Shown one piece after another: positions 6,235 to 47,323 of a stretch of 48,293 bases of DNA (position 1 is its first letter; each line of letters begins with the position of its first letter). The position numbers were made by a program, and so were the translations under genes. The notes under the pieces are model-generated. The model did not search any database, was not told the DNA's origin, and saw only the letters and a program-made list of their open reading frames with translations. Source of the DNA: Fidelibacterota bacterium (GTDB taxonomy: Bacteria > Fidelibacterota > UBA2242); assembly GCA_049975265.1 (NCBI GenBank), contig JBNGDF010000018.1, forward strand, positions 1 through 48,293, in the 5' to 3' direction.

Positions 6235-6316
6235 AGACGGCTACCGGACGCCGTTGGAAATTGAATAAACTCTTTCCGATCGCGATTTCATAGCCTATAA
6301 ATAAGTAAAAAAAGTA

Positions 6317-6345
6317 TTGACAACAATTTTTGTAACCTATATATT
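6317..6345 (+). promoter_or_regulatory. Sigma70-type promoter of the alpha-glucan locus
   Basis: TTGACA (6317-6322), 17-nt spacer, TATATT (6340-6345); A-rich UP-like tract upstream; first CDS starts at 6397. Confidence 0.75.
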
Positions 6346-6396
6346 TTTGATTAGTAACTCAAATATGAACTACAACGATATGCGGCTAACTTAAAC

Positions 6397-8235
6397 ATGA
6401 AAAAATTTCCCAAACCAACGACGCTATTGCTTTTAATTTTTGGGTTAATAAATGATTTCCATTGTGCCAGCGAAGGTGGTCTCGATACAGTCCCCGACTG
6501 GGCTGCAGATGTTGTCTGGTATCAGATTTTTCCGGAACGATTCCGCAACGGCGATCCTGGCAATGACCCGACTATTGAGACTCTCGACGGGACCTGGCCG
6601 TATGAGAAGCAAACGGAATGGGCAATCACTCCGTGGACGTCCGATTGGTATAAACTGCAACCCTGGGAGAAGGGAAATGGGCGGGGTTTTTATTACAATG
6701 CCCAACTGCGGCGCTATGGCGGAGATATTCAGGGAATTATCGATAAACTGGACTATCTTCAGGAGTTGGGTGTCAATGCACTTTACCTGAATCCGGTTTT
6801 TGAATCTGCCTCGTCTCATAAATACGGTGCCACCATGTACCATCATATTGATAATAATTTCGGTCCCGATCCGGAGGGTGACATTAGAATCTGGAATTTG
6901 GAAACACCGGACGATCCGGCGACCTGGCGCTGGACTGCAGCGGACAGGCTCTTTTTGAAGCTGATCGATGAAGTCCATCAACGGGATATGAAAATTATAA
7001 TCGATGGTGTTTTTAACCATGTTGGCATTCCTTTCTGGGCATTTCAGGATGTAAAACAGAAGGGCAAAAAGAGTAAATATCTGGATTGGTTTATTATCAA
7101 GTCCTTTGATAATCCGCACACAAAGAAGGACGAATTCGACTATCAGGGTTGGTATGGAGTCATGGATTTGCCGGAAATCCGGGAAAATAAAAACGGTCCC
7201 TGTGATTCTTTCCGGGAGCATATTCAGGCGGTTGTACACCGCTGGATGGACCCGAATGGTGACGGGAACCCGGAAGACGGTATTGACGGTTGGCGGCTGG
7301 ATGTGGCGGAAATGGTCAGTAAAGAGTTCTGGCGGGATTTCCGCCGGTGGGTACGCGGGATCAATCCGGAAGCCTATCTGACTGGTGAGATTTGGTGGGA
7401 AAATTTTTCTGAAAATATAATGTTCGATGCGTCACCGTGGCTGCAGGGTGACATTTTCGACGCTGTGATGAATTACCGTTTCGCCGACGCTATGCTGAAA
7501 GCCTGTGTAGATAAAGAAATGCAGATCCGTCCCACTCAGTTGGATAATCTGCTTGGATTCGTACGGAGAAAGTACCCTCAACCGAATCAGCAGGTGCTGA
7601 TGAATTTGATGGGCAGTCACGACACCGAGCGTTTTGCTTCCATGGTGATCAATCCCGACCGTTGGATCGATCATGCGTCCAATCTGAATTACGATGAGGA
7701 ATTTGAGATCAGAAAACCGATGGAAGAAGAACGAGAAGTTCAGAAACTGATTCTCGCCTTTCAATTCTGCTATCCTGGTGCTCCCTATATCTATTATGGT
7801 GATGAGGTGGGTATGTGGGGCGCCGATGATCCCGATTGCCGCAAACCGATGGTCTGGGAAGATTATCAATACGAACCGGAAACCCATCACCCCTTTGGAC
7901 AGCCACGCCCTGTCGATTCGGTAGAGGTCAATAGAGATCTGCTGGAATACTACCGGCAGCTGATCCGGATACGGAAAGATCACCCGGCGCTTAGACGCGG
8001 AGAATACGAGACAGTCTATACCATTGATGATTCCCAGATTTTTGTATTTGAAAGGAGTTACCGGTCAGATAAAATTCGGGTGGCATTTAATTTTTCTGAA
8101 GAGATCCAGTCGGTGCCTGTTGAAAAATGCCTTGGTGATGATCAGGAATCCTGGCGCTTAATTCATGGAGAGATTCGTGATTTTGCTGCCATACCACCTA
8201 AATCTTTTGGAATATACAAGCGAGGAAATGATTAA
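6397..8235 (+). CDS. GH13 alpha-amylase family (neopullulanase/cyclomaltodextrinase-like), exported
   Basis: VWYQIFPERFRNGDP, YGGDIQGIIDKLDYLQELGVNALYLNP; conserved regions DGVFNH, GWRLDVA, GEIW, GSHD; YYGDEVGM..ADDPDCR; N-terminal signal-like sequence. Confidence 0.93.
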   Translation: MKKFPKPTTLLLLIFGLINDFHCASEGGLDTVPDWAADVVWYQIFPERFRNGDPGNDPTIETLDGTWPYEKQTEWAITPWTSDWYKLQPWEKGNGRGFYYNAQLRRYGGDIQGIIDKLDYLQELGVNALYLNPVFESASSHKYGATMYHHIDNNFGPDPEGDIRIWNLETPDDPATWRWTAADRLFLKLIDEVHQRDMKIIIDGVFNHVGIPFWAFQDVKQKGKKSKYLDWFIIKSFDNPHTKKDEFDYQGWYGVMDLPEIRENKNGPCDSFREHIQAVVHRWMDPNGDGNPEDGIDGWRLDVAEMVSKEFWRDFRRWVRGINPEAYLTGEIWWENFSENIMFDASPWLQGDIFDAVMNYRFADAMLKACVDKEMQIRPTQLDNLLGFVRRKYPQPNQQVLMNLMGSHDTERFASMVINPDRWIDHASNLNYDEEFEIRKPMEEEREVQKLILAFQFCYPGAPYIYYGDEVGMWGADDPDCRKPMVWEDYQYEPETHHPFGQPRPVDSVEVNRDLLEYYRQLIRIRKDHPALRRGEYETVYTIDDSQIFVFERSYRSDKIRVAFNFSEEIQSVPVEKCLGDDQESWRLIHGEIRDFAAIPPKSFGIYKRGND

Positions 8236-9913
8236 AGCGCATATCTTTGCGGGATTGCTTTTATTGGCGGCTATTGCGGGGTGTGATCGCAAACCGGCAC
8301 CTGCCAATCTGCTTGCTCGGGTAGAAGATCGTCAGGTCACGGTTGAAGATTACACGACGCGGTATATCGATTTTCTAAGAAAGACCGGGATAAATGATAA
8401 TCTGAAAGTCCGGCATGATTTTTTAAAAACACTGGTAAATGAGGCGGTTATCCTTGAATACGCACGACAGAAGCAGATTCATAAGGAGCCGGAGTTGCAG
8501 ACCCGGCTACAGAATAAATGTGAACAGCTGTATCTGGATTATTATTACGAAAATTACATCTATCCACAATTAACTATATCGGAAGCAGAATTACGGGAAG
8601 CCTTTCGTCGATCGAAAATTCGGTTACACGCGCGACACCTGTATGCTCCCACACTGGATGCGGCATTTGCGATTCGCAAGCAGTTAAATCAGGGAAAAAG
8701 CTTCGAATCGTTAGCCCGGGAGCTGTTCAACGATCCGACACTAGCATCCAATGGCGGTGATCTGGGCTGGTTCAGTTATGATGAGATGGATCCGAATTTT
8801 GAAGATGCGGCATATTCGATGCAGGTGGGCGAGATTTCCGAGCCGGTAAAGACCAGTGACGGCTACAGCATCATTCAGCTGCTGGATGCAGAGATAGACC
8901 CCTTTATTACAGAATCCGATTATGCAAAGAATGAAAAATGGTTGCAGTTGCAGGTGAAGCGGCGCAAGCATGCCCGTTTTCTGGAGGCTAAAACAGACGA
9001 AATCCTGGCTCAATTGGAGCTGCAGTTTGATCCGGGTGGCTTAGAGCAGCTAATTCAACATTTTCCACTGATTCGGTCGCAAATTCTCGATGAAGCAGAT
9101 CTTATGGAATCCCACCCGGTCGAACCCGATGTGGTATTGCTAATCTCAAAAAATGGCAATTGGACCCTGCAGAAAGCAATCGTTAAGATGGCGGAACTGA
9201 ACCGCAAACAGTGGAACAGGATTCAGAACGAAGACGATCTGGTTCAGGCTATTACAGGACTTGTCATCCGGGAAGAAATCGAGCGGCGAATCGAAGAAAA
9301 AGAGATCAACAACCGACCGGATGTCATTCAACTGGCGAGTCAGAAACGAGATCATGTCATTCTGCAGTATATCGGAGAGAAATTACTGGATACATTGACG
9401 ATTTCTGAAGAGGTGCTTCGCGACTATTTTGAAGCACACCGGGATGAAATGGTATCATCAGAAAGGTATGAAATAGCGGAAATTGCAGTGCCCGATTCAT
9501 TAACGGCTGGGAGGCTTTGTGAGCGGTTGCGATCCGGTGCGGACTTTGGAGAATTGGCAAGGAGCTATTCTCAGAGTGAGCGCAGTTCGAGCCAGAATGG
9601 ATATCTAGGGTGGGGAACTTTGGAGCAATTTGGAAAATTGTCGGAAAAAATCAGAGGTTCGCGCACCGGTGATATTTTGGGACCAATTCGGTATTATGAC
9701 AAATATATGGTGCTGAAAGTGCTTGATGTCCATGAGCCGGTACCACTTGAATTCGACGATGCACGGAGGCTCATCGAGTCGCGGCTAAAACCGCAGGCGT
9801 TTCATGACGCATATTACCGAATAATGAATTCCGCTCGGACAGAATTAACCATTAAAATCGAGAGTGGCTTGGTTGATAAATTAAACATTGATATAAAACG
9901 GGGAAAATCATGA
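8228..9913 (+). CDS. Parvulin/PpiC-type peptidyl-prolyl isomerase lipoprotein (SurA/PrsA-like, two rotamase domains)
   Basis: Start re-called at ATG 8228 (GAGGAA RBS, overlaps the amylase stop); lipobox LLLAAIAG-C; SFESLAREL..SNGGDLGWF...GEISEPVKTSDGYSII and DFGELARSYS...NGYLGW. Confidence 0.88.
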   Translation: MIKAHIFAGLLLLAAIAGCDRKPAPANLLARVEDRQVTVEDYTTRYIDFLRKTGINDNLKVRHDFLKTLVNEAVILEYARQKQIHKEPELQTRLQNKCEQLYLDYYYENYIYPQLTISEAELREAFRRSKIRLHARHLYAPTLDAAFAIRKQLNQGKSFESLARELFNDPTLASNGGDLGWFSYDEMDPNFEDAAYSMQVGEISEPVKTSDGYSIIQLLDAEIDPFITESDYAKNEKWLQLQVKRRKHARFLEAKTDEILAQLELQFDPGGLEQLIQHFPLIRSQILDEADLMESHPVEPDVVLLISKNGNWTLQKAIVKMAELNRKQWNRIQNEDDLVQAITGLVIREEIERRIEEKEINNRPDVIQLASQKRDHVILQYIGEKLLDTLTISEEVLRDYFEAHRDEMVSSERYEIAEIAVPDSLTAGRLCERLRSGADFGELARSYSQSERSSSQNGYLGWGTLEQFGKLSEKIRGSRTGDILGPIRYYDKYMVLKVLDVHEPVPLEFDDARRLIESRLKPQAFHDAYYRIMNSARTELTIKIESGLVDKLNIDIKRGKS

Positions 9914-12651
9914 GACATTGGAAGGTCTGCGGACTGTTCATTCTGCTATTCGGGCTTATTTTTGTAAGTTTTGGCGGAACAACGGGTAAAATCACCGGGC
10001 AGGTTACCGATCAGGATACCGGAACACCGTTGTTCGGTGCCAATGTCATATTGAAGGGGACCTCAATGGGTGCGGCGACCAATGCGGAAGGTAAGTTTTT
10101 AATTTTGAACGTTCCGCCGGGAAGTTATAATTTGGAAATATCGATGATCGGTTATCAGAAACAGCTCCTGACCGATGTCCTGGTACAGATCGACCTGACC
10201 ACCCGCGTGACGATTGAACTGTCGTCCACAGTGCTGGAAGCCGGTGAAGCCGTGACCGTCATTGCCGAGCGACCGGTGATTCAGAAGGATAAAACATCTT
10301 CCGAGTCACGTGTCGGTGCTGAAGAGATTGAAGCCTTACCGGTTACGGAAGTTCGGGACCTGCTGGAGATGCAAAGCGGTGTCACCGTCGATGCGGGCGG
10401 CGGAATTCATATTCGCGGTGGTCGCTCTTCAGAAGTTGCTTATTGGGTTGATGGTCTCCCTGTTACCGATGCTTTTGACGGCAGTCAGGCGGTGACGGTT
10501 GAAAACGACGCCATTCAGGAGCTGCAGGTGATCAGCGGTACGTTTAATGCAGAGTATGGAAACGCCATGTCCGGGATTGTCAATATTGTTACGAAGGAGG
10601 GTGCTACAGAATACAAAGGCTCCATTTCAGCCTATCTGGGTGATTATATATCCTCGGATACAAAATTATATCGTAATATTGAAGAAATTAATCCGTTGCA
10701 CGAACGCAATCTCCAGCTCAACTTAGAGGGACCGATTCCATTGTTAAAAGAGAAACTAAGTTTCTTTACTTCCATTAAAAAAACCTATACCGACGGCTGG
10801 CTATACGGAATCGGCTATTTCAACATGTATGGCGATACTCTCGATGATGTCAAGAATGTTCCGATGAACTGGCGTGACCGCTTTACAACCAATACAAAGC
10901 TCACTTTCAAACCCTTAGCGAAACTGAAATTCCGCCTTTCTTATATGACCAGTGATGAGACCTACGAAATGTATGATCACTTTCTTCAGTATGTTCCCGA
11001 TGCGAATATGGAATATTATGACAAGGGACGCAATTTATCTCTCGGCATGACGCATACCCTTACTCAGAGAACATTTTACGAATTAAAGTTTTCATCCTTC
11101 TATAGCTATTATCAAGCCTGGCTGTTTGAGGATCCCCATGATCCGCGTTACATTGATCCATATTACTGGGAGCATCAGGAACGGGTGAACCCCTACTATT
11201 GGTTTACCGATCACAGCATCAATACCAATCGTTATGAACAATTTACCAATACGAATATTCTGAAATTTGATTTCACGTCCCAGGTGAACGATCTGAATCT
11301 GGTTAAATTGGGAATTGAGGCAAAGCAGCTCAACGGTGGTATTGATGCATTTGCCATCACGGATGATCTGGAATCCACGGATTCTGTTTTTACACCATAT
11401 ATACCCCGAAAAAATGTAGAAGGCAAAAAATTCGGTGATTTTTACCGTTACAGTTTCAATGTAAAACCCGAAGAGTATTCCGCCTACATTCAGGATAAAC
11501 TGGAATTTCAAAGCGTGATCATCAATCTGGGAATCCGGTGGGATTATTTTAATGCCAACGGCTACGTACCCGCCGATCCAAAGGAGCCGTACATCGACAA
11601 TCCCCGCAATCCCGCGCTGGATTCCTTGACACTGGAAGAGAAAGAGGCGATCTGGTGGAAGAAAACCACGGCGAAGCAGCAACTAAGTCCCCGTCTGGGC
11701 ATTGCCTATCCGATAACCGACAGGGGGGTGATTCATTTTTCTTTTGGACATTTCTTTCAGATACCACCCTATGGACTGCTCTATGCCAATCCGGGATATA
11801 AATTACCGGAAACCAGCGGCACTTACGGTATTTATGGTAATCCCGACATGAAACCGCAGAAAACCGTGATGTATGAACTGGGGGTTAATCAGGAAATCAT
11901 TACGGATCTGTATATTGATTTAACCGGTTTTTACCGGGATGTTCGGGATTGGGTTTCCACCGGTGTACCGATCGATATTGGTGGCGGTACCCAGTATATC
12001 ACCTATGAGAATAAGGACTATTCCAATGTTCGTGGTGTTGTCCTCTCCGTGGATAAGAAATATCACGATCATTACTGGTTTAATTTATCCTATACGTTTC
12101 AGATTGCAGAGGGTTCAAATTCGGATCCGGGGGATGCCTTTGGTGCTATCCAGGCGAATCGAGAACCGCGGAAATATATAATTCCGCTGAACTGGGATCA
12201 GCGTCATACTCTGAACGGTGCGTTTTATTATGGAAGCGACCGGTGGGGTGCCACCTTAAATGCGCGATTCGGCTCCGGTTATCCCTATACCCCCACGGTT
12301 ACTACGGCATCACGGCAGGGCGCCAATGTGTCGGTTCAGCCGGAAACCAATAGTCGCCGGGTTGCACCCACCTATGAGTTCGATTTAAAATTGCATCGAA
12401 AATTGAAACTGCTCGGAACGGAGATCATGGTGTATATGGATATTTTCAACCTATTGGATACTCGCAACGAAATCTATGTCTGGAGCAGCACCGGGCGGGC
12501 GGATTCGAGCATCGAGGAGCTGCAGGCGGATGAAACCAGCCGGGCGTATCTGGCGGATCAGCGGATCAACACTGTGGAAGAGTATTTCCGGCATGCCGAA
12601 TGGTATTATGCTCCCCGCAAAATCAATATCGGTTTTAAAATTTCATTCTGA
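9910..12651 (+). CDS. TonB-dependent receptor with N-terminal carboxypeptidase-regulatory-like domain
   Basis: GTTGKITGQVTD..TGTPLFGANV; plug IHIRGGRSSEVAYWVDG and ISGTFNAEYGNAMSGIVNIVTKEG; LSPRLGIAYPI, NPDMKPQKTVMYELG, FNLLD; C-terminal PRKINIGFKISF. Confidence 0.93.
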   Translation: MRHWKVCGLFILLFGLIFVSFGGTTGKITGQVTDQDTGTPLFGANVILKGTSMGAATNAEGKFLILNVPPGSYNLEISMIGYQKQLLTDVLVQIDLTTRVTIELSSTVLEAGEAVTVIAERPVIQKDKTSSESRVGAEEIEALPVTEVRDLLEMQSGVTVDAGGGIHIRGGRSSEVAYWVDGLPVTDAFDGSQAVTVENDAIQELQVISGTFNAEYGNAMSGIVNIVTKEGATEYKGSISAYLGDYISSDTKLYRNIEEINPLHERNLQLNLEGPIPLLKEKLSFFTSIKKTYTDGWLYGIGYFNMYGDTLDDVKNVPMNWRDRFTTNTKLTFKPLAKLKFRLSYMTSDETYEMYDHFLQYVPDANMEYYDKGRNLSLGMTHTLTQRTFYELKFSSFYSYYQAWLFEDPHDPRYIDPYYWEHQERVNPYYWFTDHSINTNRYEQFTNTNILKFDFTSQVNDLNLVKLGIEAKQLNGGIDAFAITDDLESTDSVFTPYIPRKNVEGKKFGDFYRYSFNVKPEEYSAYIQDKLEFQSVIINLGIRWDYFNANGYVPADPKEPYIDNPRNPALDSLTLEEKEAIWWKKTTAKQQLSPRLGIAYPITDRGVIHFSFGHFFQIPPYGLLYANPGYKLPETSGTYGIYGNPDMKPQKTVMYELGVNQEIITDLYIDLTGFYRDVRDWVSTGVPIDIGGGTQYITYENKDYSNVRGVVLSVDKKYHDHYWFNLSYTFQIAEGSNSDPGDAFGAIQANREPRKYIIPLNWDQRHTLNGAFYYGSDRWGATLNARFGSGYPYTPTVTTASRQGANVSVQPETNSRRVAPTYEFDLKLHRKLKLLGTEIMVYMDIFNLLDTRNEIYVWSSTGRADSSIEELQADETSRAYLADQRINTVEEYFRHAEWYYAPRKINIGFKISF

Positions 12652-12665
12652 TAGAGGTATAAATT

Positions 12666-15600: not shown

Positions 15601-16325
15601 CCGCCTATACCGGTAATCTACCCTTTCTGGTTAAGTACGATGCCCAGGAGGTCAACTTTACTGTCAAGAAGCGGATTGCTTTAACCGGTGATGATGCAAC
15701 CGACTGGCAGACAATTCCCTTTGCTTTCGGTGATTTTTCTCCTCGTGGGTTCCCCGACGGTAAATTGAATGCCGATTCTGTCGAGAGCGACTGGGTTATC
15801 TTTTTGGATGACACAACCGAGACAGGTGAATTGAAGCCCACCTGGCGCTTTTCGCTTGATGCACCGCGACCGTCGGAGACCTATCGCAAATATCCGCCGC
15901 AAGCCGGTGACACTGCTTTTGTTGTGATCAATAAACCGTTTCTTTCCGGTGATGTTTTTGAATTTACCACCTTTACCTCCTATATCGATGAGGAGGCAGC
16001 GAAGTCGGATTTAAAGAGGATTAAAGTAGTACCGAATCCCTACGTGGCGGCGGCGACATGGGAATCGAAAAATCCTTTTGTCAGCGGGCGTGGTCCCCGT
16101 TCGATTCATTTTAACCATCTGCCGGCGGAGTGTACGATCCGGATATTTACGGTGTCCGGCGAGTTGGTCAAAATCATTGAACACAGTGCGCTTCTCAACG
16201 ATGGTTCTGAAGAGTGGGATTTGCTCACCCGGGACAATCTGTCTGCTTCATATGGAATTTACGTATATCATGTGGATGCGCCCGGGATCGGCGAACACGT
16301 AGGCAAATTTGCCATAATTAAATAG
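12666..16325 (+). CDS. Large secreted protein (1219 aa) with acidic DxDxDG-type repeats, Fn3-like domain and atypical T9SS-like C-terminal domain
   Basis: Signal peptide; repeated IDNDGDG/IDDNANGLVDE; AGDGKVTLYWD..FEGYKVFK..VQNGQTYYYAVVSYD; CTD KVVPNPY...IRIFTVSGELVK...WDLLTRDN..SYGIYVYHV..GKFAIIK. Confidence 0.82.
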   Translation: MKFIRFISFILISALLVAQHVPSKERGDHNFRRQTNIDGNKVRTSIFNYGVTGRPEAGAQYVPYEWPKNSGQHYIAMTQIWVGAEVVSENGNIIRLVDVANGRTNSAGESLNFEPVPGYLNPESDMIAKSDEPESWPSYWPDKSDDETDPGWTGSWNGYFGKDQFNSDQEIYFKISDDHYKKSTVTYYPDTTDLNRGGIGILAGVRVLEWSQVLVEDVVFILYEIQNDGTEDLDKVSFSLWLADLVGGDGDTDDDSPDFDLQYNIAWCKDSDGIGNVESFGSDPVGVAAVSYLETPGNARDRIDNDGDGEPNSPKVTAAMLVGETHNRIDDNANGLVDEDSTHIAFGDFSVGVGFADRIDNDYDGESNSPTVTAAMVEDARTDRWNRWPPFPESDPFSQNVVHLIDVKAEDLGCKFRDFIDNNDNSELGGPEITQAMIDSAALDSPYYRYKVPGTAIILYDVKDEDIGCRYADGIDNDGDGAVDEGIDENIDEMIDESREDFIDNDGDWDPLYDDVGLDGASYTGDRGEGDGVPTSGAATDFPGEPNIDKTDISESDQMGLTSVAYDRAGSINLDSDNNLWRLYLTPGKFWQPPPGGISGDYDLFVSSGYFPLKSGQTERISMAVCLGADEDDAIRNMQVAQRTYDEDYQFAKQPIPPNVTVVAGDGKVTLYWDDVAESSFDSYMFGIGSPGYDFEGYKVFKATDTGFKDALKITDASGNLTYLKPIYQCDLVDGRQGYHPVDINGVKYNLGSDTGISHSFTDTDVQNGQTYYYAVVSYDFGGDATNNIPPTECNIKLTINSATGEIEQKGPNVVVVTPEAPAAGYVEADIIDIDLVSGMTTSKIGYRIVDPLKVLDQHTYRITFEDTLKPKKGTGIGYDTLVTKSYTLEDVTDRDDPDTLVLRNRQFYAEDEQPIIDGWQLTFNNKKLIDFNISESHWNRDSLWRFVTTVFSQSLTIGRPIAADYRIEIGDIGTDSSTAYTGNLPFLVKYDAQEVNFTVKKRIALTGDDATDWQTIPFAFGDFSPRGFPDGKLNADSVESDWVIFLDDTTETGELKPTWRFSLDAPRPSETYRKYPPQAGDTAFVVINKPFLSGDVFEFTTFTSYIDEEAAKSDLKRIKVVPNPYVAAATWESKNPFVSGRGPRSIHFNHLPAECTIRIFTVSGELVKIIEHSALLNDGSEEWDLLTRDNLSASYGIYVYHVDAPGIGEHVGKFAIIK
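13560..14340 (+). repeat. Intragenic acidic, probably Ca2+-binding repeats
   Basis: RIDNDGDGEPNSPKVTAAM (DNA ~13571-13628) vs RIDNDYDGESNSPTVTAAM (~13739-13796); also FIDNNDNSELGGPEITQAM, GIDNDGDGAVDE, FIDNDGDW. Confidence 0.75.
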
Positions 16326-16334
16326 GTGCTTATT

Positions 16335-17363
16335 ATGGATATGAAGAAGCTGGGTTTCACTTTTTTGCTAATATTGACTGCATTGACGACGGTGCCCCTG
16401 GCGAAAACCGTGACAAAGACCGGTACGACCGCCGCCAAATTTCTGGCGATCGGAATCGGATCGAGAGCCAACGGCATGGGTGATGCCTTCACGGCAGTTG
16501 CAGATGATGGTACCGCTATGTACTGGAATCCTGCCGGGATTGCGCATCTGAACCGGATGGAGATAGTCAGCAATTACAGTCAGTGGATCGCCGATATCAA
16601 CCTAATGTATTTTGGGTTGGTACTGCCTTTTCAGCAGTACGGTACATTTGGCATCAATGCGACTCATCTGGCGGTAGGTGAGATGGAGGTCACCACCGAA
16701 GCCAATCCTGAAGGCACCGGTGAATTTTTTAATTCCGGCAGTTATGCGGTGGGGCTCAGTTATGCCAAAGTCCTGACCGACCGTTTTTCCATTGGCGGCA
16801 ATTTGAAGTACATCAATGAATATATCATGAACTCTTCCGCCGGGTCGGTGGCTCTGGACATCGGGACGCTCTTTTTCTCGCCGTTCTGGGGGATTCGGTT
16901 TGGTGCCAGTATCTCGAATTTCGGAGGCAAGATGCAGATGACCGGCGAGGATTTACTGGTTACCAAGGATATAGATGAAACCAAAGAGGGTAATAATGAG
17001 AGCGTAAATGCCTATTTAGCAACCGATAAATTCGACCTGCCTCTAATACTTCGTGTCGGTTTATCAGGAGATATTGGAAATTCGAAGTTTGTTCGCACTA
17101 CCTGGGCGATAGATGCCATTCATCCCAATGACAATTCCGAATATATCAATTTGGGGTTGGAAATTGGGCTGGCGAATGATCTGGTGGTTTTACGGGGAGG
17201 AGTAAAAGCGCTGTTTATGGATTATCGTGATGAGAATCTTTCGTTGGGCGGGGGATTGAATATCCCGCTTGCGAATCAAATAAAACTCCACGTGGATTAT
17301 GCCTACCAATCCTACCGCTATCTGGATCAGGTGCATAAGTACACGATGAGAATAGTGTTCTAA
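16335..17363 (+). CDS. PorV/PorQ (UPF0164)-family outer-membrane beta-barrel
   Basis: KTGTTAAKFLAIGIGSRANGMGDAFTAVADDGTAMYWNPAG N-terminal signature of the FadL-like PorV family; amphipathic strands; terminal Phe. Start uncertain (16326/16335/16341). Confidence 0.85.
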   Translation: MDMKKLGFTFLLILTALTTVPLAKTVTKTGTTAAKFLAIGIGSRANGMGDAFTAVADDGTAMYWNPAGIAHLNRMEIVSNYSQWIADINLMYFGLVLPFQQYGTFGINATHLAVGEMEVTTEANPEGTGEFFNSGSYAVGLSYAKVLTDRFSIGGNLKYINEYIMNSSAGSVALDIGTLFFSPFWGIRFGASISNFGGKMQMTGEDLLVTKDIDETKEGNNESVNAYLATDKFDLPLILRVGLSGDIGNSKFVRTTWAIDAIHPNDNSEYINLGLEIGLANDLVVLRGGVKALFMDYRDENLSLGGGLNIPLANQIKLHVDYAYQSYRYLDQVHKYTMRIVF

Positions 17364-17399
17364 CAGCAAGTTGTGTTTAACAAAAAAAGGAGAAACAAA

Positions 17400-19964
17400 A
17401 TGAAGAAAGTTGCAACAATCCTCATGCTCGTGGCTCTGGTGACGTTTGCGTTTGCGGATGTGAATGTCACTTTTCGACTTAATACGAGTGCAATGACGGA
17501 AGGGGTAACCGATTCCACCGCAATCATGCATGTCCGGGGTGAAATGAATAGTTGGGGAGACGGGAATCCTCTGACCAATGTAGGAGGCGATTACTGGGAA
17601 ACCACGATCCAGCTCACCGATGGCACCTACGGGTATAAGTTTACCTATACCGATGCCGTAACCGGTGCGGTTAAGTGGGAGGATGCGATCGGTAACCGAA
17701 GTGTGACCGTTGCCGGCGCGGATTTAGTAGTTGACCTGGCTTATTTTGATGATGTAGCACCCTATACGCCGACGGACAGTATTGATGTCTGGTTTCGGGT
17801 GAATATGGCTGGTGTACTGGATTATGACGGCACCAGTCCGGTTGGTGTACGTGGTTCAATTCCTCTGGATCCGACCTGGGAACATGCTGCAGAGCTGACC
17901 AAAGAAGGCGACACCGATTTTTATTCCGGGCTGGTCTCGTTTCCGAATTCTGATGCAGGAGACACGGTTGAGTACAAATTTGTCTGGGGACCGTTAGCCG
18001 GTTGGGATGGTGTCCACTGGGAATCACCCAAAAATGATTTACTAAATGGTAACCGTCACTTTATCCTTGGACCGGATACTACCCTGGCGTTCAAGTACTT
18101 TAGCGATGAACCGCCGGTGACCAATATTGATACCTTTGATGTTCGAATTGTGATGAATACGGCTACCATGGATAATATCACGGATTCAACCGCACTGTTT
18201 TTTGTCACCGGTAGTTATGACGGATGGGCTCATGATGATGACACCCTGACTCAGGTGGGTGACTATTGCTACAAGGATTTTCAGTTTGTTGGTCCGGCTG
18301 ATGGACTCGAGCTGGAATTTACCTTCTTCTATAAAATGCTGGCAACGATTGATCAGCAGAATTGGCAAGGTGGTAGCAATCTAAAACCTGTCGTAACATC
18401 TGATACTACATTAGTGTATTACTGGCAGAATGGAACAACACCGCCCTATACTCCAAGTGACAGCATTGATGTCTGGTTCCGGGTCAATATGGCTGGTGTG
18501 CCCGACTACGACGGCACCAGTCCGGTTGGTGTGCGCGGTTCCATTCCACTGGATCCGTCATGGGCAACGACCTTCGTATTGGATCAGGAAGGTGAAAGTG
18601 ATTACTATTCGGGTCACATGAAATTCCCGGTCGAAGATATCGGCGATACGATTCAGTACAAGTTTGTCTGGGGTGCAACATCCGGCTGGGATAATGTAAA
18701 TTGGGAATCACCCAAATATGATACCTGGCTGAATTCCGGTAATCGCTATTTCTTCGTGAATCAGGACACCACACTGGCGTTCAAGTACTTCAGTGACGAA
18801 CCGCCCACAGGTGTCAAACCACAGACCGCTTATGTAGTCTTCTCGGTGGATATGTCGGCGTATATCAGTCTGGGTATTTTCAGCGAAGCCAGGAAGGACT
18901 CCATGCAGATTCGGGGAACCTTCAACGGCTGGAATGACGGTGATCCGCTGAAATGTCAAATGACCAAGCAGCCGGGCACATCGATTTACTCGATTATTGC
19001 TGAAATTACCGATTTCCCTGGAAAAGAGATCGAGTACAAGTACTACATGAAAATGTCACAGGAATCGCTGGACTTCTGGGGAAATGCCGGTATCACCGAC
19101 ATCCATCCCGACTGGGGTTACGAGGTTCCGCCAACCCGTGGTGGTGGCAACCGCAAGATCGTATTCGAAGGTGACCCGAATGAATATCAGATACTGGATG
19201 TGGAAGCGTATAACGGTTTGCCTTTACAGGGGATAATTCCTGAGGGACATACCGTAGCGGTTACCTTCAGTATAGACATGAATAATGCACCTCTGTTCGA
19301 TCCGGCGACCGATTCGGTGCTGTTCTATTTCAAGGATGAATGGCAGGTCAATGCTCTCGGTCTGCGTGGTGAAACTCTGAAGTACACCGATGATAACAGC
19401 GATGGTATATATGATATCACGATTGATTTCGTCGGACCCACTGCTTATACCCTGATCTATACGGTTGGTTTTGTGGGACCTGAGAATTCCATCGAGGAAG
19501 GCGGCGGTTTTGAATTTGGTCGTTTCCGCTGCCGTTATATCCAGCCGACGACGATAGACCCGGTAAGCTGGCCTACGGCATATGCGACGCCGATGGACAC
19601 CTTTACCGAGGATCCGCCGCTTGATGTTGAGAACCCGCCGCTGGGCATTCTCAAGATCAATGATGAAGGTTTGGATATGCCGGAGAAATTTGCCCTTTCT
19701 CAGAATTATCCGAATCCTTTCAACCCCACTACTTCAATCCGTTTTACGGTACCCCGGTCCGAGATTGTAACACTGACGATTTACAATATGCTGGGGCAAG
19801 CGATTGTAAAAGAGATCTACAGCAGTCTGAATGCCGGACACTATTCCTTCGTCTGGAATGGTCGCGATATGTCCGGTAATCCGGTTGCCTCGGGCGTTTA
19901 CTTCTATGAATTAAATGCCGACAACCAATTCCGTGATATCAAGAAAATGGTTCTGATGAAATAG
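17400..19964 (+). CDS. Non-catalytic multi-module carbohydrate(starch)-binding protein with FlgD-Ig/T9SS-type CTD
   Basis: Start re-called at ATG 17400 (AAGGAG RBS, MKKVATILML signal peptide). About six modules of the pattern V.F.VNM...RG..xxW...Y(E/Q)YKF...WE...NR (CBM20/CBM48-like). CTD FALSQNYPNPFNPTT...WNGRDMSGNPVASGVYFY..KKMVLMK. Confidence 0.8.
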   Translation: MKKVATILMLVALVTFAFADVNVTFRLNTSAMTEGVTDSTAIMHVRGEMNSWGDGNPLTNVGGDYWETTIQLTDGTYGYKFTYTDAVTGAVKWEDAIGNRSVTVAGADLVVDLAYFDDVAPYTPTDSIDVWFRVNMAGVLDYDGTSPVGVRGSIPLDPTWEHAAELTKEGDTDFYSGLVSFPNSDAGDTVEYKFVWGPLAGWDGVHWESPKNDLLNGNRHFILGPDTTLAFKYFSDEPPVTNIDTFDVRIVMNTATMDNITDSTALFFVTGSYDGWAHDDDTLTQVGDYCYKDFQFVGPADGLELEFTFFYKMLATIDQQNWQGGSNLKPVVTSDTTLVYYWQNGTTPPYTPSDSIDVWFRVNMAGVPDYDGTSPVGVRGSIPLDPSWATTFVLDQEGESDYYSGHMKFPVEDIGDTIQYKFVWGATSGWDNVNWESPKYDTWLNSGNRYFFVNQDTTLAFKYFSDEPPTGVKPQTAYVVFSVDMSAYISLGIFSEARKDSMQIRGTFNGWNDGDPLKCQMTKQPGTSIYSIIAEITDFPGKEIEYKYYMKMSQESLDFWGNAGITDIHPDWGYEVPPTRGGGNRKIVFEGDPNEYQILDVEAYNGLPLQGIIPEGHTVAVTFSIDMNNAPLFDPATDSVLFYFKDEWQVNALGLRGETLKYTDDNSDGIYDITIDFVGPTAYTLIYTVGFVGPENSIEEGGGFEFGRFRCRYIQPTTIDPVSWPTAYATPMDTFTEDPPLDVENPPLGILKINDEGLDMPEKFALSQNYPNPFNPTTSIRFTVPRSEIVTLTIYNMLGQAIVKEIYSSLNAGHYSFVWNGRDMSGNPVASGVYFYELNADNQFRDIKKMVLMK
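17761..18807 (+). repeat. Intragenic duplication of a ~120-aa binding module
   Basis: PYTPTDSIDVWFRVNMAGVLDYDGTSPVGVRGSIPLDP...YKFVWG...WESPK...TTLAFKYFSDEPP (~17761-18116) recurs almost identically at ~18445-18807; many DNA differences are at third codon positions. Confidence 0.9.
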
Positions 19965-19979
19965 GTTGGTTGTTTTGAT

Positions 19980-20016
19980 GAGAGCGGGGAGAAATCCCCG
20001 CTCTCCTTCTCTTTTC
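19980..20016 (+). terminator. Strong stem-loop (terminator or mRNA stabiliser) inside the alpha-glucan locus
   Basis: GAGAGCGGGGA-gaaa-TCCCCGCTCTC, a perfect 11-bp stem, followed by an interrupted pyrimidine tract CTTCTCTTTT. Confidence 0.75.
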
Positions 20017-20050
20017 CTTAATTTTTTCAAATCGTGCAAAGGACTAACGG

Positions 20051-21877
20051 ATGCATACGATAGATTATACGATTGTCATATTTTATATGGTCGGTTTGGT
20101 GGTAATCGGAATGTGGTTTCAGCGCAAAGCAGCGCAGGGGATCGATTCCTATTTCCTGGGTAACCGCAATCTGCCCTGGTGGGCGCTGGGTGCATCGGGG
20201 ATGTCTTCCAACCTTGACATCAGTGGTACCATGATCATCGTGGCGCTGGTCTATGCGATTGGTGCCCGGGGATTTTATATTGAAATCCGGGGTGGTGTTA
20301 CGCTGATCATGGCATTTCTGATGATTTATATGGGCAAGTGGAACAGACGCGCCGGAGTCATGACTCTGGCGGAGTGGATGAAGTTTCGCTTTGGCGATGA
20401 CAGAGAGGGTAAACTGGCGCGTTTCATTACCGCCGTCACGTCATTAATTATGACGATTGCCATGATTACCTATTTTGCCATCGGTGGTGGCAAATTTTTA
20501 GACCAGTTTCTGGGAATTCCCTCTATGTTGGGATTGCCGTCGGAGTTCTGGGCAGCGGCGGTATTGATTTCCATTGCCATGATCTATACCGTTGCTTCGG
20601 GATTGTATGGTGTGATCTGGACGGACGTTTTTCAGGGGACCCTGATATTTCTGGCGATTGCCTATGTCGTTGTGCAGGCTTTGAAAATTGATCTGCCGAA
20701 TGAATTTCTGGTATCCATGCCGCTGAAGGAGGTCGCCGGTGGCGGTTATAAAGCGTATCTGACCTCTTTTAAGGAATGGACAGCCGTGGTACCGAAGTGG
20801 CATCTGGGCATTGATCCCAATTCGGTCTACTCCATGTATAATCTCTTCGGCATAGCGATCATGTTTTATCTATTCAAAACCGTGATAGAGGGTAGCGGCG
20901 GTACCGGTAACTATATGATTCAGCGTTACTTTGCTGCTAAAAGTGACCGGGAGGCGGGATTGTTATCGCTGTTCTGGACGTTTTTGTTATCCTTTCGCTG
21001 GCCCTTTATCGGTGCCCTGGCGGTTTGGGGTGTATCGCTGGCGACGCAAATCAGCGATCCGGAGATGGTATTGCCTGTCGTTGTAGCGACACTGCCAGTC
21101 GGTATTAAAGGATTTTTAATTGCCGGTTTAATGGCTGCCGCCATGTCCACTTTCGACTCCACCGTCAATGCCGGAGCGGCATACTGGGTTAAGGATATCT
21201 ATCTGGAATATGTTAATCCTGACGCCGACCACAAAAGACAGATGAAACAGAGTTATCTGGCTTCGATTTTAATTGTGTTAATCGGTCTGGGGCTGATGCT
21301 GGTCATTAGGAATATTAATGAAATCTGGGGTTGGATTACCATGAGCATTGGTGCGGGTATGATTATCCCGCAGCTGATCCGCTGGTACTGGTGGCGTTTG
21401 AATGGATACGGCTACGCCATCGGGATGGCAAGCGGAACGATAACGGCGGTTATCTGGAAAATCCTGGCACCGGAGGGAACGGCGGAATATTTTGCTTTTA
21501 TCGTCTCCGCGGGTATGTCGTTTGTCGGCACAATCATCGGGACGCTTCTGACTGAGCCAACGGATGAGAAGGTGCTCAGAAATTTTTACCGGATCACCCG
21601 ACCTTTCGGATTCTGGTCACAAATACGGTCTCATTTTTCCGACAATTTTTTGAATAAAATCAAACAGGAAAATCGGCGGGATATCTTCTCCATCTTTTTT
21701 GCCGTACCCTGGCAGTGTTGCCTTTTTCTGATGTGGCTGATGCTGGCAATGAAACGATTTGACAATTTTATTGTTTTACTGGTGATTACAGTTCTTTTGT
21801 CGATAGTCCTGTATTTTTCATGGTTTAGGCATTTATCAACTGAGGTTCGGGAGGACGCGGAAACGGAGAAATTATGA
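20051..21877 (+). CDS. Sodium:solute symporter (SSS) family sugar transporter
   Basis: SYFLGNRNLPWWALG.S, YTVASGLYGVIWTDVFQ, QRYFAAKS, GLMAAAMSTFDSTVN, RWYWWRLN; many TM helices. Confidence 0.92.
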   Translation: MHTIDYTIVIFYMVGLVVIGMWFQRKAAQGIDSYFLGNRNLPWWALGASGMSSNLDISGTMIIVALVYAIGARGFYIEIRGGVTLIMAFLMIYMGKWNRRAGVMTLAEWMKFRFGDDREGKLARFITAVTSLIMTIAMITYFAIGGGKFLDQFLGIPSMLGLPSEFWAAAVLISIAMIYTVASGLYGVIWTDVFQGTLIFLAIAYVVVQALKIDLPNEFLVSMPLKEVAGGGYKAYLTSFKEWTAVVPKWHLGIDPNSVYSMYNLFGIAIMFYLFKTVIEGSGGTGNYMIQRYFAAKSDREAGLLSLFWTFLLSFRWPFIGALAVWGVSLATQISDPEMVLPVVVATLPVGIKGFLIAGLMAAAMSTFDSTVNAGAAYWVKDIYLEYVNPDADHKRQMKQSYLASILIVLIGLGLMLVIRNINEIWGWITMSIGAGMIIPQLIRWYWWRLNGYGYAIGMASGTITAVIWKILAPEGTAEYFAFIVSAGMSFVGTIIGTLLTEPTDEKVLRNFYRITRPFGFWSQIRSHFSDNFLNKIKQENRRDIFSIFFAVPWQCCLFLMWLMLAMKRFDNFIVLLVITVLLSIVLYFSWFRHLSTEVREDAETEKL

Positions 21878-22707
21878 ATGAAATACCCGAAGAGCTTTTG
21901 GGGAAACTGATTAAACTGGGTTTTACCAATTATGAAGCCAGAACCTATCTGGGACTACTGCGGAGCAATCCGGCAACCGGTTATGAAGTCAGCCAGCAAA
22001 CCGATGTACCCCGCTCGGTGATCTATTCGATTCTCAGAAAATTGGAATCCATGGGGGTCGTCGTTTCGATTCACGACAAACCCCGTCGTTATATACCGCT
22101 CTCACCAAAGCAGCTGCTCTCATTGCTGGAATCCGATTTTTCAAAGCGTATCAGTTCGCTGAAAGAGGACCTGATCAATTTCAATAATAAACCGGAGTCC
22201 GAAGGGTTTTGGAATATTCGGGGCTATGAATCGCTGATGGAGCTCTGTTCTTCGCTGATCAATGAAACCACGGAATCGATCTATTTATCGGGGTGGAAAC
22301 GTGAAATTGAACAGCTGAAACCGGAGTTGCTGATTGCAAAAAAGCGAGATATAGACATTATCATTTTCTCTTTTACAGAGGTTGATGGAGATTTTGGCGA
22401 GACCTTTGCCTATGGGATCAGTGATGCAAAGCTGGCGAAGTTTTGGGACCCGAAACTGATCCTGGTCACCGATTCAAAAAATCTGGTCATGGGTTCGGCG
22501 AATATGGACGACGATCAGCAGGCGATCTGGACCCAGAATCGGGCGGTGATTACAATTGCGATTAATTACCTGATTCTCGATATAACCCTGTTTGGACAGC
22601 GTAAAAATATTGACGTTTCAAATACGGTTATGAAGCTCATGACAGAAAAGGTCGATCATCTGGATCAGCTGATCGAAGAAACGAATCAGAAAAATAAAAG
22701 CAAATAA
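21874..22707 (+). CDS. TrmB-family transcriptional regulator
   Basis: LGFTNYEARTYLGLL..PATGYEVSQQTDVPRSVIYSILRKLESMG (TrmB wHTH), FWNIRG, C-terminal effector domain. Confidence 0.88.
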   Translation: MNEIPEELLGKLIKLGFTNYEARTYLGLLRSNPATGYEVSQQTDVPRSVIYSILRKLESMGVVVSIHDKPRRYIPLSPKQLLSLLESDFSKRISSLKEDLINFNNKPESEGFWNIRGYESLMELCSSLINETTESIYLSGWKREIEQLKPELLIAKKRDIDIIIFSFTEVDGDFGETFAYGISDAKLAKFWDPKLILVTDSKNLVMGSANMDDDQQAIWTQNRAVITIAINYLILDITLFGQRKNIDVSNTVMKLMTEKVDHLDQLIEETNQKNKSK

Positions 22708-22733
22708 TCCAGATAAATAGGGCACTACTCATT

Positions 22734-25598
22734 TTGAAAAATAAAATATTGTTCGGCATATTATTACTATCTGTATTACCGGCATTTACCCAGGTTGTCT
22801 GGACGGAACCGGAATATGCGACTGAGGAAGATTCGATCACCGTATTTTTTGATGCCACTCAGGCAACCCGCACCGATCTGGTGGGATATACCGGTGATCT
22901 TTACACCCACACCGGCGTTAATACCAGTGCCGGCAATTGGATACATGTGATTGGCAGCTGGGGAAACAATTCGGTACAACCAAAACTAACCCGTATTTCG
23001 GATAATGTGTACAAATTGGTCATCGGTTTTCCCCGGGAGTTTTATTCTGTCAGTGACACAACGGAGATGATTTATTCCCTGAATTTTGTATTTCGAAGCG
23101 CAGACGCTACCCGGCAGACCGAAGATATTTTTTATGAACTGTATGACTATGGAATTACCGCTGTAATCGACAGTCCGTCGGTCAATGCCAACTACGGAGA
23201 CGTGATGCGCAGCCCCCGGTTTTACGAAATCAACGATGTTATCGCTTTCAAAATCAAGGCTGCCGCCCTGAATACAGAAGTGGACTCGATCAGGATTGTA
23301 AAAAACGGGTCACTGGTTTATCTTGACGAATGGAGAGATTCACTGCTCTATACAGAAACTGCCCTCGAGTCGGGACGTTATCATTATGAAGTCATTGTCA
23401 CGGATACAACCGGATTCAGTGATGCCGCCGAATTTGGTGCTATGGTTAATCCGAAAACGAAAAATGTATCACCGCCGGCGTCTATCAAGCCAGGGATCAA
23501 CATCCTGAATTCCCAGTCCGCAGGGCTGGCGCTGTTTGCGCCTTATAAGGATTTTGTCTATGTGATCGGCGATTTTAACGATTGGATAGTGGATACGTCC
23601 TATTATATGAACCGTTATTTTGTCAGTGATGATAGTATCCTGTTCTGGTTGGAAATCGACAATCTGAATCCTGCCAGCGAGTATGCATTTCAATATTTGG
23701 TAGATGGCAATATCCGGATTGCCGATCCCTATACGGAAAAAATTCTGGATCCCTGGAATGACCATGATATACCGTCATCAATTTATCCGAATCTGAAGGC
23801 TTATCCGTCCGGGAAAACCGGTGAAGCTGTTTCTCTTTTTCAAACAGGGGAAAATGAATATTCGTGGACCTTCACCGAATGGGACAAGCCGGCGCAGGAG
23901 CAGTTGATTATCTACGAGCTGCTGATCCGTGATTTTCTTGAGCAGCACGATTATCAAACCCTGATCGATACACTGGATTACCTGGCAAATCTAGGCGTCA
24001 ACGCCATCGAGTTGATGCCGGTGAATGAATTCGAAGGCAACAGCAGCTGGGGGTACAATCCCTCTTTTTATTTTGCACTTGATAAATATTACGGACCGGC
24101 TATCGATTTCAAATATTTCGTGGATGAGTGCCACGGTCGCGGTATTGCAGTGATCATTGATATGGTACTGAATCACTCCTTTGGTCAGTCGCCGCTGGTG
24201 CGCCTTTATGATCACGGCAGCGGTACGACTGCGCCGGAGAATCCATGGTATAATGAAGAGCATAATTTTACCAATCCCGATGCCCGTTGGGGCTTTGATT
24301 TTGATCATGAAAGTATGGCGACACAGTACTTTGTTGACCGCGTAACGAAGTACTGGGTGACCGAGTACGGGGTTGACGGCTACCGGTTTGATTTTACCAA
24401 GGGAATCGGTAATAATATCAAGACCGCCAGTGACCCTTGGGGCAGTAACTACGATGCCGACCGAATCCGGTTGTTGAAACGGATAGCGGATGCCCTTTGG
24501 GAAGTTGATAGTTCCGCCTATATAATTTTAGAGCATCTTGCAGAAAATTCAGAAGAGAAGGTTTTGGCAGATTATGGCATGTTGCTCTGGGGGAATCTGA
24601 ACTGGAGTTATTCTCAGGCGTCCATGGGCTATTCCACGGATTCGGACTTTTCCTGGGGCTATTTTAAAAATCGCAGCTGGACAAAACCCCATCTCGTGAC
24701 CTATATGGAGAGTCACGATGAAGAGCGCCTGATGTACAAGAATCTGACCTGGGGCAACTCAGCGGGTGATTACAGTATTAAAGAGCTTTCAACTGCCTTG
24801 AAACGTCAAAAACTGGTTAACGCCTTCTTTCTGACCCTGCCGGGACCGAAGATGATCTGGCAGTTCGGCGAATTAGGGTATGATGTCTCTATTGATTATG
24901 ATGGTCGTCTCAGTGAAAAACCGATTCGCTGGCATTATTTTCAGGATGTCGAACGAAAAAGTCTGTATAAAACCATCGCTGCGCTGCTGAAACTGCGTCA
25001 TGAAAACGATGTGTTTACCAATCCCGCTGCAAGCGTGCAGATGTCGGTTGGAAGTAATACCAAACGCATCGTGATGAGCGGCTCACCCAATGTCGTGATT
25101 ATTGGGAATTTCGGTGTGACATCACTTTCGGTTACTCCGAATTTTCAGCATACCGGCAGGTGGTACGATTACTTTTCAGGGGATTCGATCAATGTCGTAA
25201 GCGGAAGTGATCCGATTGCGCTGGAGCCGGGCGAGTTTCATATTTATACTGACAGCAAACTGGATACTCCGGAGCCGGGTATCATCAACCATATCGCTGA
25301 AACCGGGGCGAATTATCCCCATCAATTTGTTCTCTATCCCAATTTTCCCAATCCTTTTAATGCCACGACAACGTTGCGGTATGATGTCGAAAGGCAATCA
25401 GACTTGCGGATCGGCATTTACGACCTGCGCGGTCAGGAGGTATATTCAAATCAGCTGGATAATCAGCCACCCGGCTGTTACAGCTTCTACTGGGATGGAC
25501 GCAACGGTCAGGGCGAGATGCTGCAATCGGGCATCTACTTTTTGGTATTTCAGCGCGGCGCCGAACGCAGGACGCAGAAAATCACACTGATTAAATAA
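22734..25598 (+). CDS. Secreted GH13 alpha-amylase/pullulanase-like enzyme with CBM48-like domain and FlgD-Ig/T9SS-type CTD
   Basis: TTG start, signal peptide; LFAPYKDFVYVIGDFNDW, IYELLIRDF, IELMPVNEF..SWGYNP, DMVLNH, GYRFDFTKG, LEHL, ESHD; CTD NFPNPFN...WDGRNGQG..LQSGIYF..KITLIK. Confidence 0.92.
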   Translation: MKNKILFGILLLSVLPAFTQVVWTEPEYATEEDSITVFFDATQATRTDLVGYTGDLYTHTGVNTSAGNWIHVIGSWGNNSVQPKLTRISDNVYKLVIGFPREFYSVSDTTEMIYSLNFVFRSADATRQTEDIFYELYDYGITAVIDSPSVNANYGDVMRSPRFYEINDVIAFKIKAAALNTEVDSIRIVKNGSLVYLDEWRDSLLYTETALESGRYHYEVIVTDTTGFSDAAEFGAMVNPKTKNVSPPASIKPGINILNSQSAGLALFAPYKDFVYVIGDFNDWIVDTSYYMNRYFVSDDSILFWLEIDNLNPASEYAFQYLVDGNIRIADPYTEKILDPWNDHDIPSSIYPNLKAYPSGKTGEAVSLFQTGENEYSWTFTEWDKPAQEQLIIYELLIRDFLEQHDYQTLIDTLDYLANLGVNAIELMPVNEFEGNSSWGYNPSFYFALDKYYGPAIDFKYFVDECHGRGIAVIIDMVLNHSFGQSPLVRLYDHGSGTTAPENPWYNEEHNFTNPDARWGFDFDHESMATQYFVDRVTKYWVTEYGVDGYRFDFTKGIGNNIKTASDPWGSNYDADRIRLLKRIADALWEVDSSAYIILEHLAENSEEKVLADYGMLLWGNLNWSYSQASMGYSTDSDFSWGYFKNRSWTKPHLVTYMESHDEERLMYKNLTWGNSAGDYSIKELSTALKRQKLVNAFFLTLPGPKMIWQFGELGYDVSIDYDGRLSEKPIRWHYFQDVERKSLYKTIAALLKLRHENDVFTNPAASVQMSVGSNTKRIVMSGSPNVVIIGNFGVTSLSVTPNFQHTGRWYDYFSGDSINVVSGSDPIALEPGEFHIYTDSKLDTPEPGIINHIAETGANYPHQFVLYPNFPNPFNATTTLRYDVERQSDLRIGIYDLRGQEVYSNQLDNQPPGCYSFYWDGRNGQGEMLQSGIYFLVFQRGAERRTQKITLIK

Positions 25599-47320: not shown

Positions 47321-47323
47321 AGC

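Follow-up and report, generated by a model that had tools for sequence, protein, structure and literature searches.

We analysed a 48,293-nucleotide stretch of DNA from a Fidelibacterota bacterium (assembly GCA_049975265.1, contig JBNGDF010000018.1; hereafter the window), in which a TonB-dependent receptor (TBDR), a 1219-residue protein (hereafter X) and a barrel of the PorV/PorQ family are encoded one after another within a run of nine genes. On balance, we lean towards reading this run as a locus for alpha-glucan uptake, with X held on a barrel of its own and partnering the receptor at the cell surface. The genome carrying the window (2.86 Mb, 95% complete) was used for genome-wide searches.

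Conservation of the TBDR-X-barrel triad was examined in a scan of GTDB for X loci, which gave 618 matches, 71 loci being fetched and kept; these are titled Marinimicrobia, KSB1, Calditrichota, Ignavibacteria, Kryptonia, Rhodothermales, Balneolales and Stahlbacteria, among others. The TBDR lies directly upstream of X in 58 of the 59 evaluable loci, the barrel directly downstream in 66 of 68, and both neighbours are in place in 53 of 56. All three genes were also present in each of 20 further regions chosen on strong matches to the X-type C-terminal domain (CTD), with the order TBDR-X-barrel in 13, TBDR-barrel-X in six and both in one. The order TBDR-barrel-X was seen in loci L134, L135, L141 and L143-L146, where a gene like that of a peptidyl-prolyl isomerase (PPIase) directly follows X in five of the seven. 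Within the genome itself, all ten X-type genes cluster with a TBDR and a barrel, eight of them contiguously, one with a SurA-like insert (L031) and one rearranged (L038); the two glycerophosphodiester-linked triads each have one split gene (the receptor in L032, X in L033). The X-type CTD occurs in 51 of 51 source-phylum genomes (E ≤ 1e-15) with 1 to 29 copies, six genomes having a single weak match. Genes flanking the copies of this genome encode LacI and glycoside hydrolase (GH) family 5 proteins; CBM9, GH3 and a sodium:solute symporter (SSS); pectate lyase, GH88 and GH43; glycerophosphodiesterases; peptidases; and lamin-tail/HhH proteins. An earlier interpretation made from the DNA letters alone (hereafter the sequence-only reading) had raised the question of a conserved core block whose flanking carbohydrate-active enzymes (CAZymes) vary by substrate, and the triad is indeed kept across lineages with flanks that differ by substrate. 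A unit specific to glycans, in contrast, did not hold up, as copies also stand beside phosphodiesterase and peptidase genes.

Tree distances of the three proteins are closely correlated across 48 triplets (Spearman coefficients of 0.94 for TBDR and X, 0.82 for X and barrel and 0.91 for TBDR and barrel; 500 permutations, which do not control for kinship, gave 0.27-0.36 at best), and the TBDR and X trees share 27 of their 36-37 supported splits. The triplet trees group by flanking substrate genes across lineages, and paralogues of one genome fall in different clades together with other lineages, so the congruence does not follow from the species tree alone. These data bear on a different explanation, in which the receptor works alone, as in the proteobacterial carbohydrate utilisation loci containing TBDRs (CUT loci), and X with its barrel has a separate task, as a surface binder, as an adhesin or as a scaffold for carbohydrate-binding module (CBM) and amylase cargo, and never caps the receptor. 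The locus falls within the CUT definition in the accessible text of PMC1790865, the CTD evidence given below bears on X and the barrel only, and in the rearranged copy L038 X lies three genes from the TBDR. A free scaffold, however, need not track one receptor, whereas TBDR and X have the tightest of the tree correlations and the near-constant adjacency described above; we regard this explanation as unlikely. Gene order and tree distances lead us to favour, with caution, a contact between X and the receptor in which X would act as a lid.

X matches no Pfam or NCBIfam model at E ≤ 0.01, type IX secretion system (T9SS) CTD models included, gave no phmmer match in the PDB at E ≤ 10, and lacks a lipobox. 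Relatives are numerous (4077 at E ≤ 0.001, counted as 50%-identity cluster representatives; 3705 of 7991 scored candidates matched), and the closest named homologues are from Marinimicrobia, likely also the phylum of the source organism. None of the 120 homologues listed has a Pfam domain, and the nearest 30 matches in the ESM Atlas share no Pfam family. An AlphaFold2 model of residues 20-1219, based on 122 sequences and numbered 19 lower than the open reading frame (ORF), reached a pLDDT of 89 and a pTM of 0.80 and is almost all beta, with short helices only. A conserved loop of the CTD (residues 1106-1123) is disordered in this model of the monomer. Its N-terminal part resembles the beta-supersandwich of dextran dextrinase, bacterial glucoamylase and GH94/GH65 phosphorylases (Z 19.8, root-mean-square deviation (rmsd) 3.3 Å, 264 residues), and a Foldseek search with the whole model returned generic Ig/FN3 arrays only, with no SusD chain among the listed matches. 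Pieces of the sandwich, the FN3-like region and the CTD recur in each of the eight further paralogues that were tested. An Asp/Asn-rich insertion (25% D+N, five DxDxDG-like motifs), short in other paralogues, probably binds calcium. Nine aromatic residues of X considered as substrate-specific candidates were uninformative, five of them lying in this insertion, absent from other clades.

The fold has also to be weighed for the idea that X is a surface enzyme, akin to a mutarotase or acting as a supersandwich glycanase, and prepares substrate for the receptor. The same fold is found in galactose mutarotases and GH174 fucanases (Z about 12-13.5), and X has invariant E, R and W residues, but the best fold matches are the non-catalytic N-domains of GH15, GH94 and GH65 enzymes, the helical catalytic barrel of these enzymes is missing from the model, and the invariant residues are common to copies beside glycan, glycerophosphate and peptide genes. 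We judge an enzymatic X highly improbable.

The reading of X as a protein held on its barrel draws on two CTD profiles, X-type and ordinary cargo, both built from proteins of this genome. Ten proteins score 117-164 bits on the X-type profile, as expected by construction, and the next reaches 30 bits; the CTD of PorZ, encoded at 39807-42212 of the window, is among the next-best matches. The ordinary cargo CTD was found in about 70 proteins, including the CBM protein (41 bits on TIGR04183, cut-off 23) and the second GH13 enzyme of the locus. X scores 0 on the cargo profile and has no match at E ≤ 0.01 to the type A models TIGR04183 and PF18962 or to CHU_C/TIGR04131. Searched against the PDB, the X-type profile finds PorZ (E 0.001), PorU (E 0.04), one chance match and no cargo CTD; the cargo profile finds FlgD, 8glj, PorU, 8glk, 5uyt and gingipain CTDs, and not PorZ. 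On these profile comparisons, we take the X CTD to be a real CTD of a separate subtype. T9SS-type sorting domains on the surface partners, as proposed in the sequence-only reading, are upheld, with cargo CTDs on the CBM protein and second GH13 enzyme and a distinct subtype on X.

The local barrel falls below the PorV and PorQ equivalog cut-offs. The ten module barrels group in a single clade (support 0.93), separate from the other nine PorV-family paralogues, which include the best general-PorV and PorQ candidates. Because the CTD classes differ and the module barrels have their own clade, the local barrel most likely serves X and not all cargo; a shuttle for all is unlikely, since the CBM protein and second GH13 enzyme carry the cargo CTD and a separate general PorV-like gene exists. 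The proposal that the surface partners have their own PorV-like shuttle thus survives only in part: a PorV/PorQ-family barrel is present, but it likely serves X alone, with cargo CTDs presumably routed elsewhere. The PorU and PorZ CTDs stay bound to PorV and PorQ (PMC10202324, accessible text), and type B cargo remains attached to cognate PorP-like barrels (PMC9143113, accessible text). The barrel is a likely anchor for the CTD of X, and retention of X on this cognate barrel appears probable.

In agreement with the sequence-only reading, the receptor is not of the SusC type, scoring 82 bits on the SusC model TIGR04056 (cut-off 368); no gene of the genome exceeds this cut-off, which the Bacteroides thetaiotaomicron control passes. 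No close solved relative of the receptor was found. The SusD models PF07980 and PF12741 likewise have no match in the genome and are positive in the B. thetaiotaomicron control, bearing out the claimed absence of SusD, and X, tested for SusD likeness, has none in sequence and a nearly all-beta model. SusD was detected in seven of the 51 source-phylum genomes (E ≤ 1e-10). X would take over the job of SusD.

The T9SS core (SprA/PorKLMN), whose lack the sequence-only reading had named as a refutation, was confirmed in part, SprA being found and the motor not. SprA is present (TIGR04189, 824 bits summed in one frame, cut-off 200) and PorZ, encoded after riboflavin genes, passes its cut-off (NF052228, 265 vs 260 bits), with PorU-like (354 vs 420), PorV-like (184 vs 250) and PorQ-like (140 vs 220) proteins below their equivalog cut-offs. 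GldM was not found in this genome, in any of the 51 source-phylum genomes or in five other X-bearing genomes, its positive control being detection in nine of 41 Bacteroidota-phylum genomes. GldL and GldN were not found in the genome either, in searches that had no positive control, and GldK gave a match below cut-off only; very divergent homologues of any of the four could have escaped these searches. SprA_N occurs in 44 of the 51 source-phylum genomes (E ≤ 1e-25), where SprA without detectable GldM is the rule. A loss of gldK-N in Rhodothermus has reportedly been noted earlier. In F. johnsoniae, cargo release from SprA depends on the motor (PMC10994853, accessible text); with no GldLMN found here, export would be energised otherwise or by unrecognised parts.

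The missing motor is relevant to a further explanation, a secretion or display device in which the TonB-energised receptor supplies pull or channel in place of the GldLM motor and import is secondary. The X-type CTD and GldM co-occur in none of the 41 Bacteroidota-phylum genomes (X-type CTD in 23 at E ≤ 1e-22, GldM in nine) and in none of the 51 source-phylum genomes, although this exclusion follows kinship and is not independent evidence; in the accessible text of PMC6434023, PopC secretion in Myxococcus needs a TBDR. About 70 ordinary CTD proteins here lack such a unit, however, copies of the triad multiply by substrate class beside inner-membrane sugar transporters and sugar regulators, and a sprA-exbBD-tonB neighbourhood was seen in none of ten relatives, so that we consider a secretion device improbable. 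That neighbourhood (L041) consists of a sprA operon ending in a CTD protein and two PorV-family barrels and converging on the only exbB-exbD-exbD-tonB cluster of the genome. In six of the ten relatives sprA is likewise followed by the CTD protein and first barrel. The exbB-exbD-exbD-tonB cluster, adjacent here but in none of the ten, was rejected as evidence for a substitute motor genetically tied to sprA.

The substrate of the locus is very probably an alpha-glucan, as first proposed, given two GH13 enzymes with intact catalytic motifs. The roles of these motifs in the GH13 family are established; D302, E331 and D409 of the first enzyme, whose nearest solved structure is an alpha-amylase II/neopullulanase (E 1.8e-84), are invariant in nine of nine aligned sequences, and those of the second lie at 549, 598 and 660. 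The first enzyme is likely periplasmic with a SusA-like role. The nearest solved relatives of the second, 8xx9 and 8dge, are presumably the GH13_47 enzymes of R. marinus and B. ovatus. GH13_47 enzymes of both species are named in the accessible text of PMC11239784. By this similarity the second enzyme is likely of the GH13_47 type, tolerating alpha-1,6 branches, in a SusG-like role. The CBM protein, whose model has a pLDDT of 84, consists of repeats homologous to one another; the top five structural matches of the first repeat are CBM20-type domains of glucoamylase, STBD1, GDE5, phosphatase and amylase (Z 11.6-12.7), the best superposition on a CBM20-type domain having Z 12.7 and rmsd 1.6. A PDB sequence search with the repeats gave one chance match only, and Foldseek with the whole model generic Ig/FN3 arrays only. 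A SusE/F-like role is likely.

Related loci add GH77, glycogen phosphorylase and GH97, in a neighbour scan of 26 loci that covered 75 of their 148 unassigned neighbours. L132 repeats the nine-gene layout, L091 and L109 come close to it, and an alpha-glucan copy closely resembling that of the window (GH13-PPIase-TBDR-X-barrel-CBM-GH13-SSS) is found in Rosettibacter primus 4148-Me (L138). This strain has eight X-type CTD matches and a galactan-type copy (L059) beside a SusC-like/SusD pair. PPIase and CBM genes are both present in 21 of 34 long-flank loci and neither in 12, with the PPIase alone in one. A foldase had been counted as part of the machinery; a parvulin PPIase is present, but as an accessory, upstream in only 28 of 42 evaluable loci. 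It is a probable lipoprotein by its lipobox-like motif, a simple pattern for which matched 15 of 40 homologues, several others having no Cys, and its start is probably at 8228, ahead of which the ORF is open.

All nine genes were found where the sequence-only reading had placed them, closely spaced or overlapping on the + strand (gaps of -8 to +86 nt with likely starts), and Pfam and NCBIfam support its family calls: GH13, parvulin PPIase, TBDR, PorV/PorQ family, CBM20-like with CTD, SSS, TrmB and GH13 with CTD (Table 1). The promoter is the best of 34 sigma-70-like sites in region 6000-25900, a total that equals the mean of 34.2 in shuffled sequence; in three of eight related upstream regions inspected (L051, L054, L091), the first gene likewise has a similar TTGACA promoter ahead of it. 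The proposal of one strong promoter stands for this near-consensus site; the strong hairpin divides the operon after the sixth gene, so that 'one promoter' probably means attenuated read-through. This hairpin is a candidate partial terminator or mRNA stabiliser. The palindrome downstream of the promoter deviates from perfection at three positions and nowhere else in the 2.86-Mb genome is there a site with ≤3 mismatches. When ≤4 mismatches are allowed, 14 of 71 related loci have it; in 12 of them it immediately precedes the position of the GH13, PPIase or CBM gene, and two of the 14 matches are within coding sequence (L058, L059). Such 4-mismatch matches alone are at chance level, since shuffled 600-kb controls give 1-2. 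All four loci with a strong TrmB match carry the palindrome, perfect copies adjoin divergent trmB in L068 and L070, and it was additionally found in L132, L133 and L136. From its conservation we read the palindrome as an operator at the promoter, likely bound by the TrmB-family regulator.

Table 1 Features of the alpha-glucan locus, with positions in the window
Feature	Position	Strand	Details
Sigma-70-type promoter, TTGACA-17-TATATT	6317..6345	+	11/12 consensus matches
Palindromic operator candidate, 9 bp - 4 bp - 9 bp	6353..6374		7 nt after -10 box
GH13, neopullulanase/maltogenic-amylase-like, 612 aa	6397..8235	+	PF00128; N-terminal signal-like segment, no CTD
PPIase with two parvulin domains (SurA/PrsA-like)	8228..9913	+	PF00639, PF13616, PF13145; ORF open from 8165, lipobox-like AGC
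TBDR, 913 aa	9910..12651	+	PF13715, PF07715, PF00593; CarboxypepD_reg-like N domain, plug, barrel
Protein X, 1219 aa	12666..16325	+	Beta-supersandwich with Asp-rich insertion, helix, FN3-like domain, middle beta domain, X-type CTD
PorV/PorQ-family barrel, module-specific clade	16326..17363	+	NF033709, 192 bits, cut-off 90
Secreted CBM protein, about six tandem beta-sandwich domains (CBM20-like repeats)	17373..19964	+	PF00686, PF13860, TIGR04183; type-A-like cargo CTD
GC-rich hairpin, 11 bp, with pyrimidine tail	19980..20005	+	z = -2.9; 3' of sixth (CBM) gene
SSS, 608 aa	20051..21877	+	PF00474
TrmB-family transcriptional regulator, 277 aa	21874..22707	+	PF01978, PF11495
Secreted GH13 alpha-amylase with cargo CTD, 954 aa	22734..25598	+	Nearest solved 8xx9 (E 7.5e-190), 8dge (E 5.8e-115)

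Elsewhere in the window, positions 28201-35348 encode a PhoB/PhoR-like two-component pair and, after it, a second TBDR (979 aa), a family-less 513-aa CTD protein and a further response regulator, which together may form an uptake unit under phosphate control that has neither X nor barrel. At 46000-48293, where GC falls to 0.33, a family-less 309-aa ORF and an M10-like peptidase form a likely foreign insert.

Compared with Sus and Sus-like polysaccharide utilisation loci (PULs), the locus has the co-localised CAZymes, glycan binder and regulator of a PUL, and, as in Sus, a single operon combines a TBDR and its co-encoded putative surface partner with a repeat protein for starch binding, GH13 enzymes for the outside and the periplasm, and a regulator; many paralogous copies tuned to different substrates are shared as well. 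It differs in a receptor far below the SusC cut-off, in a partner that is a beta CTD protein and not a tetratricopeptide-repeat lipoprotein, in binders and amylase with T9SS tails where those of Sus have lipid anchors, in a PorV-family barrel within the core, in a TrmB-like regulator in place of SusR and in the included symporter. The CUT loci of Xanthomonas and aquatic Proteobacteria (PMC1790865) similarly combine a SusD-free TBDR with degradative enzymes, an inner-membrane transporter and a sugar regulator, but the accessible text describes no large co-evolving surface partner or dedicated barrel, and T9SS is absent there. We conclude that the locus probably works like a Sus system and belongs under the CUT definition, yet is not a SusCD member.

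On the T9SS side, PorQ-PorZ and PorV-PorU (PMC10202324, accessible text) also place a CTD protein next to a PorV/PorQ-family barrel, and the X CTD has its best PDB matches in PorZ and PorU. X, however, lacks both propellers and a C25 peptidase domain, goes together with a TBDR and exists in ten copies, and the genome has separate PorZ, PorU-like, PorQ-like and PorV-like genes. Type B CTDs with cognate PorP/SprF barrels (PMC9143113, accessible text) resemble the triad in having one co-encoded barrel per cargo and a proposed non-covalent surface anchoring, but the barrel here is of the PorV/PorQ family, X is unmatched by the type B models and no PorE-like gene was seen in the operon. A published description of the triad was not found in the literature searched, most subscription papers and supplements being outside its reach; the accessible text on Melioribacter (PMC3534657) notes Por CTDs and a classical sus operon and not the triad, and that of PMC11205867 does not name the FCB (Fibrobacteres-Chlorobi-Bacteroidetes) lineages carrying it.

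Several observations weigh against X as the retained surface partner of an alpha-glucan receptor. The invariant aromatic residues of X are common across substrate classes, which fits structure rather than substrate binding, and only about four of the ten copies in the genome adjoin clear glycan-degrading genes, the others lying near phosphodiesterases or peptidases. Linked genes that are inherited together give congruent trees without binding. The E-values linking the X CTD to PorZ and PorU are weak, and the cargo profile also matches PorU. No GldLMN motor was found, though cargo release from SprA in F. johnsoniae needs one. The SusC-like/SusD pair in L059 lies directly upstream of the triad, so that one system does not strictly stand in for the other and both can be present together. 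PPIase and CBM20-like genes also flank GH53, GH2 and galactose genes (galK/galT) in L057, L059 and L067; they therefore do not prove starch, and the pair was ruled out as a starch marker.

For the export of X, its retention on the barrel, its contact with the receptor, sugar binding and the direction of transport, we infer the following sequence. TrmB would repress at the palindrome until maltodextrin accumulates. The CBM20-repeat protein and second GH13 enzyme would use the general PorV/PorU route and, if placed outside the cell, bind and cut starch, glycogen or pullulan there. X would leave the cell through SprA, its uncleaved tail being kept by the dedicated barrel as PorZ is on PorQ, and on the cell surface it would serve as a lid or capture partner replacing SusD, collecting oligosaccharides over the receptor. 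From family knowledge, TonB-ExbBD would then drive import, the first GH13 enzyme would trim in the periplasm and the symporter would bring in glucose or maltose, with the PPIase as an optional aid in folding or assembling the unit.

As PUL prediction keys on susC/susD pairs, loci of this kind would be missed. Relatives of X nevertheless number 4077 cluster representatives and reach 29 copies per genome, in marine and sediment lineages that are abundant, and the triad offers a marker for the substrate niches of those lineages. We further propose, as an idea on which our confidence is evenly divided, that TBDR-X-PorV is a third basic outer-membrane design for nutrient capture beside SusCD and the lid-less receptors of Proteobacteria, not found where the GldLM motor is present, in which a lid exported by a motor-less, possibly ancestral T9SS would be clamped beside the channel by a private barrel. 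SusD-poor FCB lineages (Marinimicrobia, KSB1, Calditrichota, Ignavibacteria, Rhodothermales, Balneolales, WOR-3) would have in it their chief means of taking up glycans, phosphodiesters and peptides. The question of how SprA cargo is exported without a GldLM motor is raised at the same time, and the alpha-glucan copy in the named strain Rosettibacter primus 4148-Me makes the idea bench-testable. If true, TonB import and T9SS attachment, two machines studied apart, would be joined.

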